A stretch of DNA of 40,813 nucleotides from the IMG/VR virus record IMGVR_UViG_3300044267_003054, positions 1 to 40,813 of that record, one strand, 5' to 3'. The DNA is from a virus (taxonomy: Duplodnaviria > Caudoviricetes). The translations under genes were made by a program, and so were the position numbers. The notes beneath the pieces are model-generated. The model made no database searches and was not told the origin of the DNA. It was given only the letters and a program-made list of their open reading frames with translations. The first letter of the stretch is position 1, and each line of letters opens with the position of its first letter. Positions 273 through 28,148 of the stretch are shown one piece after another.

Positions 273-773
273 CTACGCCCGGTCCAGGCTGGCAAGCTTC
301 AGGCGTAGCTCGGCCAGCACGTCTTCGCTTGAACGCTCAGAGCCCTCAGTGCTGACACGTTCAACGAACATGCTCGGCCCGTCGGTCATGCTGATGGAAC
401 CGAGGGCACGCAGCGCGGCCACGCGCCCGGCCTGGGTACTGTCGTCACGCAGGTCCGGGCTCGTTTCCTCCAGGAGCCGCTCACAGACGAGGTCGTATCG
501 CTTGGAGTGCGACAGGCGCTTCTGATCCCTCAGCCGGGCCAACTCGGTTTCTATTCTACCCGCGATCTCACCGTCATGCCTTAGCTCGTAGGCTCGGCTA
601 TGGATCGTCGGTGCGGACATGCGGGACGTGTTGTAGCAATGCTTGTAGGCTTCTGTCTGTGACTGGCCAGAGACGATCTGGTCAACGAAGCAGAGTTGTT
701 TACCAGTCAGGGTCTTCGACTTTGTCTTCGCCCCCTTGCCACCCTCTACCAGGGTTAGTTTGCTCTTGGTCAT
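273..773 (-). CDS. terS: Terminase small subunit
   Basis: LTGKQLCFVDQIVSGQSQTEAYKHCY HTH motif typical of TerS N-termini, followed by a helical oligomerisation region; start moved to ATG 773 (MTKSK), which has a GGAGA SD. Confidence 0.8.
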   Translation of the reverse strand: MTKSKLTLVEGGKGAKTKSKTLTGKQLCFVDQIVSGQSQTEAYKHCYNTSRMSAPTIHSRAYELRHDGEIAGRIETELARLRDQKRLSHSKRYDLVCERLLEETSPDLRDDSTQAGRVAALRALGSISMTDGPSMFVERVSTEGSERSSEDVLAELRLKLASLDRA

Positions 774-938
774 TCTGTATGGTCTCCGATGCAATATGCT
801 GTTCGCTTCGCTCACTGGACGCCGCGCCGCGCTGTAAGATTTCCGACCGGCGCACGTCTCAATATATGGCTGCACCCAGTCGGCACAAGAGACCTGAATG
901 GGCGTGTCCAGACACAGACATCAATGTGTCAAATAGGT

Positions 939-967
939 CTTGTGGTATACTTGACATTGTGTATTAT
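939..967 (+). promoter_or_regulatory. Candidate sigma70-type early promoter
   Basis: CTTGTG(939-944)-N17-TATTAT(962-967), with an overlapping perfect TTGACA at 951-956; predicted start near 974 coincides with the first leader hairpin. Confidence 0.45.
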
Positions 968-973
968 GTCCGT

Positions 974-1270
974 TCAGTCGTTGCTTCGTTAGCAGCGACT
1001 GAGGGGAGGCCCATGCCTCTCCGAAGACAGCGGAGACCACCGCTGCCCCCCGCTTCCAGGGTCCACACCTGGGAGAGCAGCAGGGCCCAAGTATCGCAGT
1101 GATGCGACACGGCAGGTCTGAAGGGAACCAACCTCCGAGCCAGCTAGTAGCTGCGCCGCCAGTAAGACACTGGCTCGGGTGATGGGTAACAACCCCGCCT
1201 CCGGCCACCGGAGTAAACTTCGACCTGCCGCCCAACCGGGTGATGGTCGACGGGCCCGAACGCTGGGGCC
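974..1270 (+). ncRNA. Putative structured non-coding/leader RNA, family not recognised
   Basis: No credible ORF; about 10 helices read by eye (974-985/991-1002, 1003-1010/1015-1022, 1028-1033/1040-1045, 1054-1060/1068-1074, 1094-1098/1103-1107 with GUGA loop, 1110-1123/1218-1230, 1135-1143/1170-1178, 1184-1187/1192-1195, 1199-1204/1208-1213, 1083-1088/1252-1257); G-U pairs favour a plus-strand RNA. Confidence 0.6.
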
Positions 1271-1271
1271 G

Positions 1272-1320
1272 AGCGGATCACTCCAGTCCGCTTTTCATTC
1301 ACCACCATAAGGAACATCAA
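1272..1320 (+). repeat. Intergenic hairpin-TTTCAYTYA-SD element, copy 1
   Basis: AGCGGA-9nt-TCCGCT TTTCATTCACCACCATAAGGA before ATG 1321 (most divergent copy). Confidence 0.7.
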
Positions 1321-2094
1321 ATGCTTCACACACAGACCACCCTTGATCACTACGCCGAGTTCACCAGTCGCGTGCAGGACGGTGCCCTGGTAGTCGTCAA
1401 CCACTCGGGCGGCAAAGACAGCCAAGCCATGTATGCCGTCATCAAGTCCCTAGTACCCGCCGACCAGATCGTTGTAGTGCACGCCGATCTCGGTGACGGT
1501 GTCGAGCACCTGGGCGTCCAGGATCACATCATCGACAACATTGAACACCCACTGCACATCGCGGAGCCAGTCTGGAAGGACGGCTCGGCCAAGACACTGC
1601 TTGACGCCATCGAACGCCGGGGCAAGTGGCCCAGTGCCGCGCAACGGTACTGCACCTCGGACCTCAAGCGGGGACCATGCGAAAAGGTCATTCGTCGACT
1701 GCTCCGCGAGAGCGGACGCCGGGATGTGATCTCCTGCTTCGGCTTCCGCGCCGAAGAGAGTGCATCCCGAGCCAAGCGGCCCACCTGGGCCAGGGTCGCA
1801 CGCAACTGCACCCAGTCGAGAGAATGGTTCGAGTTCTCACCCATCCATGATCTGACCACCGAAGAGGTCTTCAGGATCATCGCCCAGTCGGGTCAGCAGC
1901 CGCACCCAGTCTACGCCGAGGGGAACACGCGACTTAGCTGTGTGTTCTGCGTGCTCGCCTCCGACAACGACCTGCGGGTCGGGGCACGCCTTCGCCCGGA
2001 ACTGGCGGCTCGCTACGTCGCACTCGAAGACAAGATGGGCCACACGTTCCGAGCCAATCAAAGCCTGCGGGATATCATTGATATCCACGTCTAG
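1321..2094 (+). CDS. Phosphoadenosine-phosphosulfate (PAPS) reductase family / DndC-like PP-loop protein
   Basis: SGGKDS PP-loop, RYCTSDLKRGP, GFRAEES..R, PIHDLT, HPVY..G..RLSCVFC motifs; start at ATG 1321 with AAGGA SD. Confidence 0.85.
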   Translation: MLHTQTTLDHYAEFTSRVQDGALVVVNHSGGKDSQAMYAVIKSLVPADQIVVVHADLGDGVEHLGVQDHIIDNIEHPLHIAEPVWKDGSAKTLLDAIERRGKWPSAAQRYCTSDLKRGPCEKVIRRLLRESGRRDVISCFGFRAEESASRAKRPTWARVARNCTQSREWFEFSPIHDLTTEEVFRIIAQSGQQPHPVYAEGNTRLSCVFCVLASDNDLRVGARLRPELAARYVALEDKMGHTFRANQSLRDIIDIHV

Positions 2095-2098
2095 GCCT

Positions 2099-2142
2099 GG
2101 GGGGCACCGCCCCCCTTTTCATTCATCAACTGGAGAGCCGTC
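2099..2142 (+). repeat. Intergenic hairpin element, copy 2
   Basis: GGGGGGC-ACC-GCCCCCC TTTTCATTCATCAACTGGAGA. Confidence 0.9.
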
Positions 2143-2367
2143 ATGGACAGCAAGGAACTGCACCCAAACACGATACTGAGAATGCGACTGGACAACCTCG
2201 TCAACCTGGACATCCCCAAGGAACGCCGGGACATCGACAACCCCCGGAACGTCGACTGGTTGCTGCGTAACCTCCGCGCCAACAACGCTGACCACCCAGA
2301 CATCGACACGTCGATGGATGCCTTGCGTCAGCACGCTGCATGGAAGCGATCCATGTTCATGTTCTAA
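2143..2367 (+). CDS. Hypothetical phage protein (74 aa)
   Basis: GGAGA SD, flanked by repeat elements; DIPKERRD..N..WLLRNL..NN.DHP pattern resembles small marine phage proteins. Confidence 0.75.
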   Translation: MDSKELHPNTILRMRLDNLVNLDIPKERRDIDNPRNVDWLLRNLRANNADHPDIDTSMDALRQHAAWKRSMFMF

Positions 2368-2376
2368 AAAATCTAA

Positions 2377-2423
2377 GCGGGGGATGAACCCCGCCTTTCA
2401 CTCATCAACCTGGAGAAAACATC
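2377..2423 (+). repeat. Intergenic hairpin element, copy 3
   Basis: GCGGGG-GATGAA-CCCCGC CTTTCACTCATCAACCTGGAGA. Confidence 0.9.
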
Positions 2424-3485
2424 ATGTCTTCATTAAAGCACGCTATCGACACCCTCGTAGAAATCTACCCCACTATGATTGCCCAGCCGAAACGACTGGT
2501 GCCCATGCTGCTCGGTGCGCCGGGCCTCGGCAAATCCCAGGCGGTGTATCAGGCGGCAGAGATCATACGCGAGCAGAACAACATCGAACCCGAAGACTTC
2601 TCAGTCGTCGAGCTTCGCGCAGGCACCATGGACCCAGCCGAGATCGGCGGCTTCCGTTTCGTCATCGATGGCAAGACCGAAGTGACCGAGCCCGACTGGT
2701 ATCCGAAGACGCAGCACGGGCTGCTGTTCCTGGACGAACTTGCCCAGGCCTCTCTCGCAGGCATGAACGCTCTGTCAGAGGTCATGCTTGACCATCGGAT
2801 CGGCACCCGCAGCTTGCCCGCTGGGTGGATGGTCGTCAGTGCATCCAACCGCAAGCAGGACCGCGCTGGTACGAACAAAATCCCGTCGCATATCCAAGAC
2901 CGGATACTGCCTCTCGACATCACCCTGGATGTCGAGGCCTTGCAGGACTACGCCATCCGATCCAACTGGTACGATCTTGTGCCGGTGTACTGGAACTACC
3001 GCCCCGAGAACGTCCACAACTTGGGCGACGATGGCCGGGGTGCAACGCCTCGGTCCTGGGAGATGGTCAGCAACTTCAAACGTGCGGACCTATCGCCCCA
3101 GGTCGATCACACCATGGTGCTCTCTGCACTGGGCGAGGAGGTCGGCTCAGACTTCCTGGCCTTCGAGCGCACGGTCGACTTGCTGCCGGACATCGACGAC
3201 CTCATCAACGACCCCATGAATGCGAAGGTCGATCACAAGCCTGACATCATGTATGCGCTGATGGGTGCGCTCGCTACCAACATGGCCCGGCACCCGGCCA
3301 AGGTCGCAGGTGTCATCCAGTACCTGGACCGGATCGACCAGGAGTGGGCATTCACCTGCATCGCTGACGCTGAACGGTTCAACTCCGCAGCGCGGGAGAC
3401 GGACCCGACGGTCAAACAACTGGCCTCATCCAAGGCCTACACCGACTGGCTCATCAAACACAAAGACGTGTTTGTCGGAGCCTGA
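2424..3485 (+). CDS. MoxR/dynein-related AAA+ ATPase
   Basis: Walker A GAPGLGKS, Walker B LLFLDEL, sensor-1 SASNR, arginine finger region IQDR, sensor-2 ATPRSWE. Confidence 0.9.
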   Translation: MSSLKHAIDTLVEIYPTMIAQPKRLVPMLLGAPGLGKSQAVYQAAEIIREQNNIEPEDFSVVELRAGTMDPAEIGGFRFVIDGKTEVTEPDWYPKTQHGLLFLDELAQASLAGMNALSEVMLDHRIGTRSLPAGWMVVSASNRKQDRAGTNKIPSHIQDRILPLDITLDVEALQDYAIRSNWYDLVPVYWNYRPENVHNLGDDGRGATPRSWEMVSNFKRADLSPQVDHTMVLSALGEEVGSDFLAFERTVDLLPDIDDLINDPMNAKVDHKPDIMYALMGALATNMARHPAKVAGVIQYLDRIDQEWAFTCIADAERFNSAARETDPTVKQLASSKAYTDWLIKHKDVFVGA

Positions 3486-3487
3486 GT

Positions 3488-3535
3488 GCGGGGGCATAGC
3501 CCCCCGCCTTTCACTCACTCAACTGGAGAAAAAAA
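3488..3535 (+). repeat. Intergenic hairpin element, copy 4
   Basis: GCGGGGG-CATAGC-CCCCCGC CTTTCACTCACTCAACTGGAGA. Confidence 0.9.
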
Positions 3536-4468
3536 ATGACCAACCATGACATCATTGACGAGCACCTCCTTGAGGTATCGGTCACCATCAAGTCCTGGGG
3601 CGGCGTGAAGCGCGACCCCAAGCAGGAACGGAAAATTCGAGAGGCCTCGGGTGCCACCCGTAAGATCGGGCACTTCGACAAGTATCTGGTCTCGAAGGAA
3701 ACGCTGGCCACGATCAAGACTATCGACGGCGCATGGCGCAACCGCAACACCGAGTTGACCCTACCCTGGTCAGACACCACTCGGGTGGTGACAGTGGCAG
3801 GCTTCAAGAAGTGGGCCGAAGAGATGCGGAAATTCCAGGTCCGCAGGCAGGCAGCGGTCGACAAGTTCTGCGACAACTGGCCTCACCTTGTCGAGCAAGC
3901 CCGGCAGGAACTGAATGGCAGCTTCAACGAGAGCGACTACCCGTCGGCTAGTGAGGTGCGTGCTCGGTTCGTTGCCGAGGTCGACTACTTCGCAGTGCGC
4001 CGGGGCAAGCACCTATCCCAGTCGCAACTGGTCGGGCAGATCGGCGAGATGCTAAACGAACGTCAGGCCGAGGTCGAAGCGCGTGCGCAGCAGCGTGTCG
4101 CCGACGCCGTGGCCGAGGTCGTCAGCCGCATCAGGGAAAAGCTCGAACACTTCAGCGAGCGGATGCACGCCTATGCCGAGGTCCCTAACCCAGAGTATGG
4201 GACCAAGCCTCGGGCCAAGGAAACGATCAAGGTCGGGACCTTCAAGGAGAACACGGTCGCAGGCCTCCGTGACATGGTCGACGTGCTACCCAGTCTGAAC
4301 ATCTACAATGACCCTGGCATCGCCGAGGTTCTCGCTGACGTGGCCAAGCATTTGACTGGCAAGGGCACGCCCGAGGCCTACGCCCAACAGTTACGCGACG
4401 ATGATGCACTACGCGCCAAGGTCGCCAAGAAAACAGACAGCATTCTCTCGAAGATGAGTGCCTTCTAA
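3536..4468 (+). CDS. DUF3150-like helical phage protein
   Basis: V.I..W.G.K.D, K.L, TLPW.D, F..SDYPS..EVR.RF, LP.LNI.NDP motifs; sits between AAA and vWA genes as is usual for this family. Confidence 0.65.
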   Translation: MTNHDIIDEHLLEVSVTIKSWGGVKRDPKQERKIREASGATRKIGHFDKYLVSKETLATIKTIDGAWRNRNTELTLPWSDTTRVVTVAGFKKWAEEMRKFQVRRQAAVDKFCDNWPHLVEQARQELNGSFNESDYPSASEVRARFVAEVDYFAVRRGKHLSQSQLVGQIGEMLNERQAEVEARAQQRVADAVAEVVSRIREKLEHFSERMHAYAEVPNPEYGTKPRAKETIKVGTFKENTVAGLRDMVDVLPSLNIYNDPGIAEVLADVAKHLTGKGTPEAYAQQLRDDDALRAKVAKKTDSILSKMSAF

Positions 4469-4470
4469 AA

Positions 4471-4513
4471 GGGGGGATCAACCCCCCGTTTCACTTACCA
4501 ATCGGAGATCAAC
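4471..4513 (+). repeat. Intergenic hairpin element, copy 5
   Basis: GGGGGG-ATCAA-CCCCCC GTTTCACTTACCAATCGGAGA. Confidence 0.85.
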
Positions 4514-5761
4514 ATGGAACACATCGAACCACCAGTACAGTCAGCCAAGCGCCTCAGCAAGATACGCTCGCGCATGGCAATGGACGCTGCCTTCTTCGGC
4601 GGCATATGCATGAGGATGAAGGTCGTCTGGCTCCCCGCCGTCTCGACAGAGGTCGACACGATGGCGACCGATGGCAAGCACCTATTCATCAACGTCGGGT
4701 ACTTCGACAGCCTGACCGACGGTCAGGTCCGCTGGGTCCTGATCCATGAGGTCCTGCACGTCACCGATGGACACCATCTGCGGATGGGCAAGCGCGACCC
4801 CAAGCGTTGGAACATTGCCGCCGACTACGCCATCAACCCTATCGTTGTCGAGCAGTGCGGCAACGCCGACATGCCAGAGGGTGGCTTGCTCGACAGCAAG
4901 TATGCGGGCATGAGCACCGAGCAGATATATGGTGCGCTCAAAGATGAGGAGCAGCAGCCCCAGTCGGGTGACGACCAGTCGGGCGACGACCAGTCCGATG
5001 GCAACCAGGGTGACGACAACGCTCAGTCTGAGCAGTCACAGTCAGCCGATCCAGCAGGGTGCGGTGGCGTTATCGCACCGACCAACGATGATGGCTCGGC
5101 CCTCTCGGTCGACCAGATTGAGCAGGCTAAGACCGAGCTTGCTCAGACCATCGCGCAGGCTGCGCAGCAGGCTGAGAAGCGGGGCCAACTTCCAGGCTCC
5201 CTCAAAGAGCTTGTGAAGAATGCCCGGCAGGCGCAGGTCGACTGGAAGGAACGGCTCTGGGACAACGCCAAGGGCTCGACCATCACCGACTACACATGGC
5301 GCAGCCCGAACCGCAGGCGCTTGCAGGACGGCATCTACCTGCCATCCCTGCTGAAGGAAGGGGCAGGCGAGATCGTCATCGGCCTCGACACATCGGGCAG
5401 CGTGTCCCGTGACGCCTTCGAGCAGTTTGCTGGCGAGGTGCTGGCCATCTGCGAGGAGGTGCAACCCAGTGCACTGCACCTGCTGTACTGTGACACCGCC
5501 TTGCACCCCGAGAGCTACGAGCGTGAGGACCTTGATGATATCAAGATCGAACGCAAGGGGGGCGGGGGCACAAGCTTTGTGCCTGTCTTCGACTGGGTCG
5601 AGGACCGCATCGCCGACGGCGAGGACGCACCGCAGTGCCTCATCTACCTGACCGACGGCTACGGCAGCGAGCCCGAGTACGACCCGGATTACCCAGTCCT
5701 GTGGGTCTGCTGCTCGCCGAAGGAGATGCGGATCGGCGAGACGGTACGCATCAACGCCTGA
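4514..5761 (+). CDS. Metallopeptidase (HExxH) + vWA-like domain protein (DUF2201 family)
   Basis: TMATDG, HEVLH zincin motif, WNIAADYAIN, acidic QSGDD linker, MIDAS DTSGS, GGGGT.F.PVF, YLTDG. Confidence 0.9.
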   Translation: MEHIEPPVQSAKRLSKIRSRMAMDAAFFGGICMRMKVVWLPAVSTEVDTMATDGKHLFINVGYFDSLTDGQVRWVLIHEVLHVTDGHHLRMGKRDPKRWNIAADYAINPIVVEQCGNADMPEGGLLDSKYAGMSTEQIYGALKDEEQQPQSGDDQSGDDQSDGNQGDDNAQSEQSQSADPAGCGGVIAPTNDDGSALSVDQIEQAKTELAQTIAQAAQQAEKRGQLPGSLKELVKNARQAQVDWKERLWDNAKGSTITDYTWRSPNRRRLQDGIYLPSLLKEGAGEIVIGLDTSGSVSRDAFEQFAGEVLAICEEVQPSALHLLYCDTALHPESYEREDLDDIKIERKGGGGTSFVPVFDWVEDRIADGEDAPQCLIYLTDGYGSEPEYDPDYPVLWVCCSPKEMRIGETVRINA

Positions 5762-5764
5762 CCA

Positions 5765-5812
5765 GGGGGGGCACCGCCCCCCCTTTTCACTCACCATAAA
5801 TTGGAGGTCCAA
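5765..5812 (+). repeat. Intergenic hairpin element, copy 6
   Basis: GGGGGGGC-ACC-GCCCCCCC TTTTCACTCACCATAAATTGGAGG. Confidence 0.9.
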
Positions 5813-6004
5813 ATGATTATCATCCCAGCCGTTCTCGGATTATTCGTAGGCATCAGCATCACCACCATAGCAATAGTGTTTGTCATCGCTATCAATGCGG
5901 ACCCTGCGGTTGAGCGGGTGCGCAAACAGAACAAGCGCCGTGAAAAACTTTCCCGTGAGCGGGCCCGGCATCGTCAAGCAATGCGCCAGATCAGGAGCGC
6001 CTAA
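5813..6004 (+). CDS. Small single-pass membrane protein with basic tail (63 aa)
   Basis: ATG 5813 after GGAGG; hydrophobic N-terminal segment then Arg/Lys-rich C-terminus. Confidence 0.7.
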   Translation: MIIIPAVLGLFVGISITTIAIVFVIAINADPAVERVRKQNKRREKLSRERARHRQAMRQIRSA

Positions 6005-6005
6005 C

Positions 6006-6053
6006 CAGGGGGGGGCACCCCCCCTGCTTTCACTCACCATAATGGAGGTTACC
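6006..6053 (+). repeat. Intergenic hairpin element, copy 7
   Basis: CAGGGGGGG-GCA-CCCCCCCTG CTTTCACTCACCATAATGGAGG. Confidence 0.9.
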
Positions 6054-6434
6054 ATGAAACGTGCATACCTTAGAGCCGAAGGCATCGACTTTCGTGAATG
6101 GGCCGGGCAGTTTGTCCACCGGGATACCGAGGTTCGCTTCGACTACATCTTCAACCCCGAGTACATAGGCTACGAAGTCGGCCCCGACCATCCAAAAGAA
6201 TTGGTCCGACGAGACCTAGGCCCAATGGGCGAGGCATTCGTTCGCACCAACTGCGATGTGGGCTGCTTCCCTCATCGCGTCTGCGTCAACGACCCACACG
6301 GGTGGGCCTATCGCTACGCCCGAGTGCTGAAGACGGTGGCTCATGTCGTCATCGACGAGGACGAGTGTGGCCACCCAGTCATAGAGCGCTGGAAGATCAA
6401 GCGCCATACAAGCTTCGAGGTGGCACAAGACTAG
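6054..6434 (+). CDS. Hypothetical phage protein (126 aa)
   Basis: ATG 6054 after GGAGG; fills the interval between two repeat copies. Confidence 0.75.
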   Translation: MKRAYLRAEGIDFREWAGQFVHRDTEVRFDYIFNPEYIGYEVGPDHPKELVRRDLGPMGEAFVRTNCDVGCFPHRVCVNDPHGWAYRYARVLKTVAHVVIDEDECGHPVIERWKIKRHTSFEVAQD

Positions 6435-6478
6435 CGGGGCAACGCCCCGCCTTTCACTCACCAACTTGGAGATCGAAA
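6434..6478 (+). repeat. Intergenic hairpin element, copy 8
   Basis: GCGGGGC-AAC-GCCCCGC CTTTCACTCACCAACTTGGAGA. Confidence 0.9.
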
Positions 6479-6826
6479 ATGACAAGCATCAAAATGAAAA
6501 CGGTTCGCTTCAGAATGATCCGCACCGAAATGTGGGAACCCGAATGCCAAGTCCCCGCCCACATGAACGAGGACGAGGCAATGGAATATGCTACCGAGAA
6601 CTATTCCGACCCAATGTACGATGAGTACATGCACAAATATACTTACGACCAGGAGACGGAGTTATCTGTCATAGAACTGGACGTTCCCTTGGGCGAGCAG
6701 AAGGACTGCTCCCTGGTGCATGAGCCTAACGTCTTGCCTAACGGTGACACCTTCGAGCTTGGTGCTCCAGACGTTGAAGATGAGTATGGCGAGGACGGTT
6801 ATGGTGACGGTTTAGGGGAAAAATAG
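6479..6826 (+). CDS. Hypothetical acidic protein (115 aa)
   Basis: ATG 6479 after GGAGA; strongly D/E-rich. Confidence 0.7.
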   Translation: MTSIKMKTVRFRMIRTEMWEPECQVPAHMNEDEAMEYATENYSDPMYDEYMHKYTYDQETELSVIELDVPLGEQKDCSLVHEPNVLPNGDTFELGAPDVEDEYGEDGYGDGLGEK

Positions 6827-6829
6827 AAC

Positions 6830-6873
6830 GGGGGATAGCATCCCCCTTTTCACTCACAACTGGAGAGAAGATC
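6830..6873 (+). repeat. Intergenic hairpin element, copy 9
   Basis: GGGGGAT-AGC-ATCCCCC TTTTCACTCACAACTGGAGA. Confidence 0.9.
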
Positions 6874-7200
6874 ATGGATACCATCTTCAATAAGATCGAC
6901 CACTTCTTTACACACCAGTGTAATGATTACGATGAACTGGACGAGACGCAGCCCGAACACAAGGCATTGCTTGATGCAATAGACCTGCTTGTCGAAATCC
7001 AACAGTCGCCGCCTGCCTTCACGCCTTACCTCAAGCACGATGGTCTAACCAAGATGCACGGGTCGGGACCGAGGTCAGACATAACCGACACAATCTTTGA
7101 ACGCATGAACGGCGTCGAGTTGATGCCGGGCACTCGCATCAAGCGTGTCATGGGACGTGTATATTTGGAAGCGGAGAAGTGGGAGGATCGTAATGACTAA
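6874..7200 (+). CDS. Hypothetical protein (108 aa)
   Basis: GGAGA SD, open frame, coupled to next gene. Confidence 0.7.
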   Translation: MDTIFNKIDHFFTHQCNDYDELDETQPEHKALLDAIDLLVEIQQSPPAFTPYLKHDGLTKMHGSGPRSDITDTIFERMNGVELMPGTRIKRVMGRVYLEAEKWEDRND

Positions 7201-7906
7201 CGCACTCGAAAGGTACGGGGACATGGCCGACAAGTTGGGCATGAGCCACGAACAACCAGTCGGCATCTCCTATAAGTCCTATGTGAATAGGAGCAAGACG
7301 GAGGTGCCGTCGGTCACCGACCACCTACTCAACGAACTTATTAAAGGCTGGCTGAGTGGGAAGATGTCTGACCGTGTCGTCCGGTTCGAGGGGAGCGTGT
7401 ACGCCTTCCACGGTACACGCCTGTATGTGAACCCACGCTGGTCAAAGTGGCGCTACCGCAAACCGTTCGCGGTGGCTCGGGTTGATCGGAAGGACGGCGT
7501 ACTTGAGGCCTTTGGCAAGTACGCCCGATGGGCTGACGCAGCATTCCCGAACGACTGGGAGAAGATCCATTCTAGGATCAGACGCATTGCCCGGAACCAC
7601 TTCAACTCCGCAGATGCGAGCCCCTACGCTCTGCGTTCTCGCATGGATGTGTGCCCCGTCTACTCGCTGCACCAGGGTGCACGGCATAAGGCTAACCACG
7701 CTGCCAACGCCACCGCCTATGACGAATTGCTGCTGCTATTCAACAACAAGTTGAAGCGGGCGAAGCGTCACAAGAGGTTCCACCTCAACGCCTACACCAA
7801 GGTGCTTGAGGAGGCGAAAGAATATGAGGACATCCACGGGGTCGACCTCGGGATTATAATCCGAAAGGATTATGTCCTCGAAAGCTTCCGAAGAAAACTC
7901 AGCTAA
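7193..7906 (+). CDS. Hypothetical basic protein (237 aa)
   Basis: ATG 7193 after GGAGG, overlaps upstream stop (ATGACTAA); ends just before the terminator. Confidence 0.7.
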   Translation: MTNALERYGDMADKLGMSHEQPVGISYKSYVNRSKTEVPSVTDHLLNELIKGWLSGKMSDRVVRFEGSVYAFHGTRLYVNPRWSKWRYRKPFAVARVDRKDGVLEAFGKYARWADAAFPNDWEKIHSRIRRIARNHFNSADASPYALRSRMDVCPVYSLHQGARHKANHAANATAYDELLLLFNNKLKRAKRHKRFHLNAYTKVLEEAKEYEDIHGVDLGIIIRKDYVLESFRRKLS

Positions 7907-7912
7907 CTTGTA

Positions 7913-7957
7913 GCCCACTGTCCTCCCTCACGGGGGGATGGTGGGCGTCTTTTTTTT
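7913..7957 (+). terminator. Rho-independent terminator ending the early operon
   Basis: 15-bp stem GCCCACTGTCCTCCC-TCAC-GGGGGGATGGTGGGC (3 G-U pairs) followed by GTC and T8. Confidence 0.85.
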
Positions 7958-8025
7958 GCCTAGATTTCGCAGACCAATGATGTATTGTTGTGGTGCACAC
8001 GCGCCATAAAACTAGGAGACCATCG

Positions 8026-8217
8026 ATGGCCCAGCCCTTGATGCAACATGAACTGAAAAAGAAAACACGCCACATCCCCTTGCCCATTGAGATATGGGAC
8101 GAGATCGAAGACCGTATGCGAGTGTCGAAGCGCAGCTATGGTGCGGAGATAAGCTCCATGATTGAGCAACTGCTTAACCTGGAGAAACTAACCAGCGAGA
8201 CGCAAGCTCGTAGGTAG
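8026..8217 (+). CDS. Ribbon-helix-helix (Arc/CopG-like) DNA-binding protein
   Basis: AGGAGA SD; TRHIPLP strand, EIWDEIEDRMRVSKRS helix, GAEISSMIEQLL helix. Confidence 0.6.
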   Translation: MAQPLMQHELKKKTRHIPLPIEIWDEIEDRMRVSKRSYGAEISSMIEQLLNLEKLTSETQARR

Positions 8218-8721
8218 GGGGGGACGGACCATCTTGTCAGTGTAGTGGGTAAGGAGAGCGTCGAGCGCTTGGACTAACTGGTCCCTTTTATTTGGCGGCA
8301 GATGATTATCAATGGCCGCTGACACCAGCACCCGCTCGCACTCTCTGCCCGCTTCCCTGCGCACAGCACCCAGTGCATCAAGCACTTTGTGAAAACTGTT
8401 AAGCTGCCCAGTCGACGCAGCCCCTACACTCACTGACCCTGAGCGTTCATAGTTAGACCCGCTGGGCCCAAGCATTCGTGCTCGCCACATGATAGCACAA
8501 AAGCTTTCGGCTGCGCTGTGTTGCACATCACTGATGTGATTGTCTCTCAACATGCCATCGAAGGGTGTCGAGTCGAGACGCCGCAGCCTAACCTGAAAGG
8601 CTTTGGGGGATACAGGTTCGAGCCTGTACTCGCCATGCCTCAGCTTTTCTGGGGGGCCAAAGTCCGACGGACTAGATGTCCCACCCTTGCGTATCGTATT
8701 GCGCTTGCTGTTCTTGCTCAT
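8188..8721 (-). CDS. DUF6456-like putative transcription regulator/antiterminator
   Basis: DFGPPE motif, D.ML....I...QH.AA..F pattern, helical C-terminus with L..ALD.L..HY; located right after primase-helicase. Confidence 0.5.
   Translation of the reverse strand: MSKNSKRNTIRKGGTSSPSDFGPPEKLRHGEYRLEPVSPKAFQVRLRRLDSTPFDGMLRDNHISDVQHSAAESFCAIMWRARMLGPSGSNYERSGSVSVGAASTGQLNSFHKVLDALGAVRREAGRECERVLVSAAIDNHLPPNKRDQLVQALDALLTHYTDKMVRPPLPTSLRLAG

Positions 8722-18155: not shown

Positions 18156-18156
<1 letters not shown>
17710..18156 (-). CDS. Endolysin, peptidase M15A family
   Basis: LS.YFSL.E...S.TA.R.GIDN.P, SSGFRS, SQH..GEAAD, FDQLI.E, WVH.S. Confidence 0.9.

Positions 18157-28148
<9,992 letters not shown>

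Follow-up and report, generated by a model that had tools for sequence, protein, structure and literature searches.

Why should nine consecutive genes in the early region of a tailed phage each be preceded by a copy of the same short hairpin element, and what does the element do? The locus that raises this question lies in a 40,813-nt stretch of viral DNA (Duplodnaviria; Caudoviricetes; IMG/VR virus record IMGVR_UViG_3300044267_003054, positions 1 to 40,813), referred to here as the window. Each copy joins a stem-loop to a nine-letter box, TTTCAYTYA, and to a Shine–Dalgarno (SD) sequence. An earlier note on this DNA had left four options side by side: weak terminators or attenuators with a factor-binding box, RNA processing or stabilizing sites, recombination joints of swappable cassettes like the PeSL elements of T4-type phages, and hairpin promoters. 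Comparison with relatives favors the third of these, without the PeSL label, together with part of the first. The nine copies are probably joints at which genes are exchanged, likely by recombination between short shared words, and each likely serves in addition as a leaky terminator or pause site and as an independent start of translation; we give this combined reading a probability of about 0.58.

Three groups of loci bear on the question. Group T consists of the window (L001, L002, and L006, whose ATPases are identical) and L138, at 96% DNA identity. Group A, its sister, consists of L003, L004, and L139, with L005 reading like L139, and its ATPases are 64–65% identical to that of the window. 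Group C (L264, L270, which is the same as L032, L281, and L313) has ATPases 30–32% identical to the window's and 92–96% identical among themselves; L032 was first picked up by DNA pattern alone, in a scan of 10 of 64 parts (124 loci).

The repeated element and its copies

TTTCAYTYA occurs nine times in the window, always on the plus strand (box starts 1293, 2117, 2396, 3509, 4489, 5785, 6028, 6452, and 6848), against 0.88 ± 0.96 matches, and at most four, in 100 shuffles. Allowing up to one mismatch on both strands gives 28 sites, of which the nine array copies have an upstream hairpin of −10.6 to −20.0 kcal/mol and the remaining 19 one of −0.6 to −9.2 kcal/mol. Further, the same upstream stretch holds a hairpin at or below −9 kcal/mol in all nine element genes; among 27 other gene starts, which were called crudely, this is so in 6. 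No additional genuine copy came out of a search of the window with a covariance model built from its nine copies and eight from L003, the other matches being reverse-strand shadows and one match with an E of 0.51. The claim of nine copies in these places and none elsewhere in the window therefore stands. An additional box match at L002:758 was not counted, as it is followed by ATG-TAG and lies within a divergent control region; the box-like match and hairpin at L002:730–800 adjoin the start of the terminase large subunit and are probably part of that region. One metagenome contig matches 1150–7300 without a difference, and possibly comes from the source sample itself.

The array reads as follows, with all features on the plus strand.

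1272–1320 (+): element 1, with an atypical hairpin, the box, and an SD sequence
1321–2094 (+): PAPS reductase-family gene (PF01507); absent in L003
2099–2142 (+): element 2
2143–2367 (+): 74-aa gene of no known family
2377–2423 (+): element 3, box and hairpin
2424–3485 (+): MoxR-like AAA ATPase (phrog_1297, E 1.6e-62), a core array gene
3488–3535 (+): element 4, box and hairpin
3536–4468 (+): DUF3150-like gene; homologs at 58% and 27–29% identity carry PF11348, which we take to be DUF3150, and a 27% homolog is annotated DUF3150
4471–4513 (+): element 5, box and hairpin
4514–5761 (+): DUF2201 metallopeptidase/VWA-like gene (PF13203, PF09967), a core array gene
5764–5812 (+): element 6
5813–6004 (+): 63-aa gene, N-terminus hydrophobic; not present in L003 or L139
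6006–6053 (+): element 7, box and hairpin
6054–6434 (+): 126-aa gene (phrog_23785, function not assigned)
6434–6478 (+): element 8, its stem beginning on the last base of the upstream stop codon
6479–6826 (+): 115-aa gene without a known family; has a shorter form in L138 and is not present in L003 or L139
6830–6873 (+): element 9
6874–7200 (+): 108-aa gene of no known family (family scans without a match)
7193–7906 (+): 237-aa last gene (g237)

Beside the PAPS reductase-family, MoxR-like ATPase, DUF3150-like, and DUF2201 genes, the array thus holds six genes without known function. The tenth and last gene overlaps its neighbor and has no element in front. Within each element the order is fixed: stop codon, a stem of 6–10 bp, box, C/A-rich spacer, SD, and ATG. 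Stem start and ATG are 43–49 nt apart in the window copies, as the earlier note had stated, stem end and ATG 26–29 nt in all nine, and in the eight copies that have an upstream gene the stem starts no more than 9 nt from its stop codon; the element does fill nearly the whole intergenic space. The G-run/C-run hairpin claimed for every copy does not hold for copy 1, which has no upstream gene and has a stem of another kind.

Across the 40 tabulated elements of groups T and A, pairing is always kept though stem sequences vary, in agreement with what had been noticed in the window; loops are 3–7 nt long and mutually unlike, and G is absent from the spacer in 32 of the 40. The nine-letter box, said to be conserved in sequence, is so within the window genome and not across relatives: its prevailing form is TTTCACTCAC in the window and TAAAACTCAC in the sister phages, and box similarity is 0.81 within the window versus 0.45–0.56 across the sister groups. 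For the hairpins, the positional signal is slight (0.64–0.65 versus 0.59), and the nearest neighbor is the cross-group ortholog at two of three core positions. Rfam gave no match in the window at E ≤ 1, and only far-below-threshold matches in L003, L004, L138, and L139.

Gene exchange at the elements

Gene content and gene order differ among relatives, and the differences end at the elements. Within group T, the PAPS gene of the window is replaced in L138 by a 55-aa open reading frame; the replaced stretch begins at the ATG of element 1 and stops 8 nt short of the element 2 stem. Element 9 of L138 carries a copy of the element-8 hairpin, with identity to the window resuming at the box. In group A, four genes (PAPS, gB, gC, and gD) are present or absent between elements, the order before the ATPase being gA-gB-gC in L003, gA-PAPS2-gB-gD-gC in L004, and gA-PAPS1-gD in L139. 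Four three-way comparisons show what is left at the site of a missing gene. In three of them the single surviving element is a hybrid that joins a left-hand hairpin to a right-hand tail; the switch lies within a word common to both copies, 16 nt long for gD, 9 nt for gB, and, in the 5′ arm, about 5 nt for gC. Crossovers are located variously in the 5′ arm, in the box, or at the SD, with no single fixed base. Such mobility speaks for recombination through short homologies and against the action of a site-specific enzyme. Among the window copies, shared words measure 6–17 nt, with a median of 10.

Whole genes have also moved. The 74-aa gene precedes the ATPase in the window, and its homolog stands behind DUF2201 in group A (L003 and L139, by direct reading). 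Group C shows the same layout and element as the window with its genes reordered: gene H precedes gene A in L264 and follows it in L270, while gene I precedes gene A in L281 and follows it in L313. Additionally, contigs from eight metagenome runs, compared at 82–85% likeness, contain further joints. One runs from 5764 to 6009, from element 6 to element 7, and leaves out the 63-aa gene (at a depth of 16.9, with 49 letters on its short side, of which 7 are ambiguous); one links the box of element 7 (6039) to the gene at 6874; and one places a new spacer and gene directly behind the box of element 2. Taken together, these comparisons support reading the elements as the joints of a variable gene array in which whole genes appear to have been replaced, lost, or moved. 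The gene-order comparison proposed in the earlier note thus came out in favor of recombination joints, with insertions, deletions, and replacements ending at the element and hybrid elements left at the seams.

A number of observations weigh against this reading of the array. The elements fill the intergenic space, and whole-gene changes would therefore end there whatever their cause; it is only the hybrids that speak for homology. The fourth three-way comparison (PAPS) keeps the whole left element and switches at the SD/ATG with no homology shown, and each metagenome joint rests on one contig, called at the likeness given above. Breaks also occur inside genes, at 6758, at 6906–7121, from 6995 to 7192, and in several swaps of N- or C-terminal parts. 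L004 is not a literal parent, and the comparisons do not orient gain versus loss. Finally, L140 and L141, whose DUF3150 proteins are 58–59% identical to the window's, keep a hairpin at some junctions only and have no box: both have one after the ATPase, L141 also after DUF2201, and neither before DUF2201.

As to machinery, the window encodes a PD-(D/E)XK exonuclease, and no annealase or integrase was recognized among the window proteins scanned. The product of the adjoining g262 is predicted to have a weak OB-like N-terminus (predicted local distance difference test score 64, best E 0.026); with so weak a fold match, it was not identified as an annealase. A clean element-to-element back-joint, the sign of a mini-circle, was absent from the contigs of the eight runs, which drop rare forms; their sole backward row (6758 to 6433) is the hairpin copy of the L138 type. 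The PAPS gene presents a further observation: between groups T and A (1321–2094 versus L139:7730–8500) its DNA is 80% identical, compared with 68% for the core genes, which suggests recent transfer of this cassette. L004 has a different PAPS type in the same slot.

Possible role of the element in the RNA

The array is framed by the following features.

939–967 (+): promoter-like stretch, CTTG, N17, TATTAT, with a conserved TTGACA at 951–956; conserved in all five aligned genomes
975–1270 (+): non-coding leader with strong folding and modular indels among relatives
7913–7954 (+): strong site like an intrinsic terminator, closing the array, with 15 pairs and a long U run; conserved in L003, L138, and L139

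The first of these scores below the threshold of the sigma-70 scan, and the likeness to the promoter consensus is one that we assume; it would be the single promoter of the array. The leader folds more stably than shuffles (z −4.98 for 975–1325, a stretch that includes element 1), its modules are present or absent among five genomes, and a folded leader stands before the array in all three groups (L138:2415–2700, L003:1420–1760, L139:7020–7410, and L313:930–1215). Its 3′ domain (1192–1265) shows compensatory change in 2 of 20 pairs over the five genomes, with a covariation score that 6 of 500 shuffles reach, a weak signal from five related sequences. Rfam has no match for the leader, and leader model R1 none outside the window in 33 other loci (the leaders of the third group were not among these). 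We regard the leader as a candidate regulator of the array. A leader-word match in L133 was dismissed as chance; separately, the leaders of L138 and L313 have a 13-nt word in common despite ATPases only 31% identical.

Whether the hairpins could terminate transcription depends in part on the U residues that follow them, a canonical intrinsic terminator having a U-rich tract of 7–8 nt behind its GC-rich hairpin. In the 8 nt after the last G–C pair, U averages 4.5 in group T (n = 18; 7 of 18 with at least five) and 4.55 in group C (n = 29; 13 of 29). Counted per copy, there are 4–6 of 8 in the window, with a longest run of 3–4, and 1–4 in the sister group; the closing terminator has 7–8, counted 1–3 nt past the stem. 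Four of the nine window copies pass an intrinsic-terminator scan that asks for five T in eight. The low U of group A (mean 2.4, n = 22, none of 22 with at least five) tells against termination as a role shared by all groups. Leaky termination or pausing is plausible from these tails in groups T and C and unlikely in A, and the role common to the three groups is more likely that of a pause site or an end-protecting hairpin. Internal terminators with low-U tails and GC-rich stems are described in the available text of PMC9045158. The option of weak terminators thus fares well for the window and the distant group, where a hairpin followed by a U run fits a leaky terminator or pause, and poorly for the sister group; its fixed factor-binding 9-mer is weakened, the box differing between sister lineages.

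Other parts of the element seem to face the next gene. The first element of L003 and of L139, which has no upstream gene, keeps box and SD and lacks the hairpin; this links the hairpin with the gene that lies upstream, and the box with the start downstream. The G-free spacer should be open by itself. One stop codon inside a hairpin in L003, and one in L139, count against the combined reading. Nor does folding in silico point to insulation of the ribosome site by the hairpin, a notion we rejected: accessibility is not lowered by hairpin deletion (0.599 versus 0.592, p 0.43), and is slightly lower with a scrambled hairpin (0.574). In group C, loops of the sequences GCAA, GAAA, and TTCG are met repeatedly. 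Next to none of the searched words were present in two RNA runs made from the same sample.

The mechanism that we propose on these grounds would run as follows. The one upstream promoter would give a message of leader plus about 6.7 kb. At each GC-rich hairpin, directly after a stop codon, RNA polymerase would be slowed or partly released, and the hairpin may shield the 3′ end of the upstream RNA. The G-free C/A/U stretch and the GGAG would then offer each next gene its own ribosome entry, and with it any gene could be dropped in between two joints. Exchange between copies would maintain the likeness of boxes inside one genome, with drift from lineage to lineage. A more ambitious version, which we hold to be improbable, sees the array as a cassette system of marine podovirus-like phages that works without an integrase: a single promoter and a structured leader RNA of 300 nt would drive genes through leaky terminators, place in the row would set expression, excision and re-entry at joints would swap and retune genes, and the leader RNA might control read-through.

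Alternative explanations

The most durable alternative, though still an unlikely one, is that the elements are processing or stabilizing sites. A host endonuclease would cut in the single-stranded box or in the A/U-rich stretch before the hairpin, the hairpin would protect the resulting end, and monocistronic RNAs differing in stability would follow, as in operons whose RNA is selectively processed and stabilized (SRPS). This accommodates both the U-rich and the A-rich box and the narrow stem-to-ATG distance, and stem-loops are known as cleavage signals and stabilizers (PMC10311766, in the part available). The sequence offers no visible cut site for it, however, and no nuclease for the purpose was recognized among the array proteins scanned. 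RNase III sites of the T7 type also need stems longer than 6–10 bp.

Rather less probable is purely translational punctuation, in which the hairpin is a ribosome termination structure blocking re-initiation and the leader a standby or enhancer site, with no effect on transcription. Such structures are reported behind 18–65% of bacterial genes (PMC7518266, available text), and both the nearness of the hairpins to the stop codon in all eight copies with an upstream gene and the overlapping, coupled genes without an element would suit it. Yet spacing is tighter to the downstream start than to the stop, two stops lie inside hairpins, the hairpin brings no gain in accessibility, and two distant groups retain the U run behind the stem. 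The ACA enhancer motif, as given in the seen part of PMC3879156, occurs in one of nine window spacers, which likewise tells against this alternative.

It is also conceivable, at still longer odds, that a factor of phage or host, specific to the lineage, binds to the box, or that the leader RNA is an antiterminator that lets polymerase pass the hairpins. The box is far more alike within the window than across the sister groups and the hairpins are less homogenized; TTTCAYTCA recurs in two L032 copies and one L313 copy, and all three groups have the folded leader. However, exchange between copies explains the likeness of boxes within a genome, most copies of the third group have no 9-mer, complementarity of leader and box does not exceed 5–6 nt, and no candidate protein was found among the window proteins scanned.

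Internal promoters, one per gene, be they hairpin promoters as the earlier note's last option had it or others as in N4, PeSLs, or the repeats of halovirus HF2, are very improbable: although TAAAAY in the sister group resembles a −10 hexamer and repeated intergenic elements are promoters elsewhere (PMC2839356; PMC8707807, as far as their available text goes), there are no sigma-70-like sites in 700–8300, no conserved −35 or other promoter hexamers in the 40 tabulated elements, no −10 match in the window box, no constancy of loops, and no RNA polymerase gene recognized among the proteins scanned (about a third of the genome lies outside the window and was partly seen), the 3330-aa protein having LPD38 and no PDB or polymerase match.

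Comparison with known systems

An integron combines one promoter with an array of single-gene units bounded by hairpin-forming repeats and changing in order, and in all these respects the present array, with exchange joints and a putative single promoter, is similar. It differs from an attC array, which has a fixed crossover point and a tyrosine recombinase, in having no fixed crossover, no attC core motifs, and no integrase recognized among the window proteins scanned. An N4-type hairpin promoter requires a conserved short loop and a virion RNA polymerase; the loops here are dissimilar and of 3–7 nt, and the 3330-aa protein gives no polymerase match.

The closest likeness is to the PeSLs of T4-type phages, which according to the available text of PMC2839356 and PMC4122927 are polyG/polyC stem-loops with SD and ATG that mark indels, recombine at varied points, and form mini-circles. 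Both are repeated intergenic modules that reach from stop codon to SD/ATG in a variable early region, have a polyG/polyC stem-loop, and show indels or replacements ending in the element, with chimeric copies and a variable crossover point. The same parts of these papers define the PeSL by a strong sigma-70 promoter and give it a span of about 100 bp, whereas the element here measures 43–49 nt and has neither a sigma-70 promoter nor an AT-rich upstream block; a podovirus-like marine phage would instead serve its whole array from one promoter and a folded leader. In a PeSL the stem-loop also acts as a terminator or attenuator, which for the present hairpin is plausible in groups T and C. With no promoter of its own, the element resembles a PeSL in its working as a joint without belonging to the PeSLs, and the label used in the earlier note does not apply.

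The stem-loops of clostridial internal terminators and SRPS operons (PMC9045158 and PMC10311766, available parts) are likewise GC-rich, have low-U tails, and tune RNA levels between genes of one operon; those described there are single, unrelated, and in fixed operons, in contrast to a module that is repeated, homogenized, and marks gene exchange. Ribosome termination structures share the stable hairpin directly behind the stop codon and its absence where genes overlap, but are, in the accessible text of PMC7518266, a statistical folding signal without shared sequence, unlike an element in which sequence and spacing to the next start are shared. The HF2 repeats are promoters (PMC8707807, available text). 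Literature searches, thin on subscription papers and without supplements, returned no paper on the present element. The concept of cassette exchange at hairpin joints is already known.

What is added here is gene shuffling of the PeSL kind in phages other than those of the T4 type and with no promoter involved, seen in wild marine phages as changes of order and as hybrid junctions resolved to the base. As read from sequence, the promoter-less PeSL-like joint is real, and three phage groups give direct evidence for the exchange of genes; the role of the joint in the RNA is what we infer. A module of 45 nt further opens to testing the question of how a plug-in region for accessory genes is maintained in small phages.

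Relatives and generality

The window phage is uncultured and is found in marine, seawater, and estuary metagenomes. Its tail-stabilization protein is 33–39% identical to those of DSL-LC04, HTVC023P, CRP-901/902, and Pag-Yong1. Contigs with close relatives of the DUF3150-like protein reach 54–63 kb, which implies that about a third of the genome lies outside the window. A search for the host through prophages found no relative among the genome contigs searched.

A covariance-model search of the kind proposed in the earlier note recovers the relatives' copies: at E < 0.001 it finds nine of nine in L138, eight in L139, and seven in L004, and the four best copies of group C have E values of 4e-8 to 4e-4. 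The group A box reads T(T)AAAACTCAC or a close variant, TAAAACTCAC occurring in nearly all copies, and its multi-copy form is present in 3 contigs among 17 loci. Copies of group C have CTTT(TT) behind the stem, then spacers that vary, and an SD of the form AGGA(GA). In several elements of this group (in L264, L270, L281, and L313), hairpin and SD are separated by an additional insert that contains GTTACAT/ATGTAAC-type words; a word of this type, possibly an operator, also stands upstream of the group C promoter. Among 77 further DUF2201 loci, many of which had few intergenic gaps called, only four, those of group C, have at least five such hairpins.

Repeats of other kinds are more widespread. 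In a survey of 80 distant DUF3150 loci, with redundant loci kept and crude gene calling, 33 had at least five intergenic gaps, and 22 of these share an 8-mer in at least three gaps; the same holds for 2 of 12 control loci (L032 being one of these two, from 56 examined) and for fewer than 1% of shuffles. The repeats are unrelated in sequence, some have several stems, and Rfam matched none in the 11 loci scanned. Lineage-specific intergenic repeats therefore appear to be a recurring trait of these early operons; many DUF3150 operons show the same design built from different sequences. Intergenic gaps around the DUF3150-like gene hold a repeated element with three stems in L157, L175, L177, L181, L184, L191, and L207, before a GGAGTC or GGAGAC SD; its stems vary but pair, and no Rfam match was found in the five loci scanned. 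Judged by these features, it is a better candidate for a new structured RNA than the array element. Other lineage-specific repeated modules, hairpins or short palindromes, occur in the DUF3150 operons of L149 and L167 (10150–13200), L199, L217, L218, and the L151 group.

Pag-Yong1 (L143/L145, OL906435) has a homologous ATPase-DUF3150-DUF2201 operon with a long GC-rich non-coding leader and repeated intergenic blocks. Its GTTCAG-CTGAAC palindrome, at about 30 places and possibly an operator, was rejected as the same element, as it also lies inside genes. An AcrVA2-like identity for g237 was likewise discarded: it has no likeness to the Pag-Yong1 gene annotated AcrVA2, and Atlas matches stay under 0.9. 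Elsewhere in the window, 18156–28148 encodes the 3330-aa virion protein, which has an LPD38 domain and no PDB match. On a further viral contig, an alphaproteobacterial permuted transfer-messenger RNA (L153:4292–4670) adjoins the DUF3150 operon.

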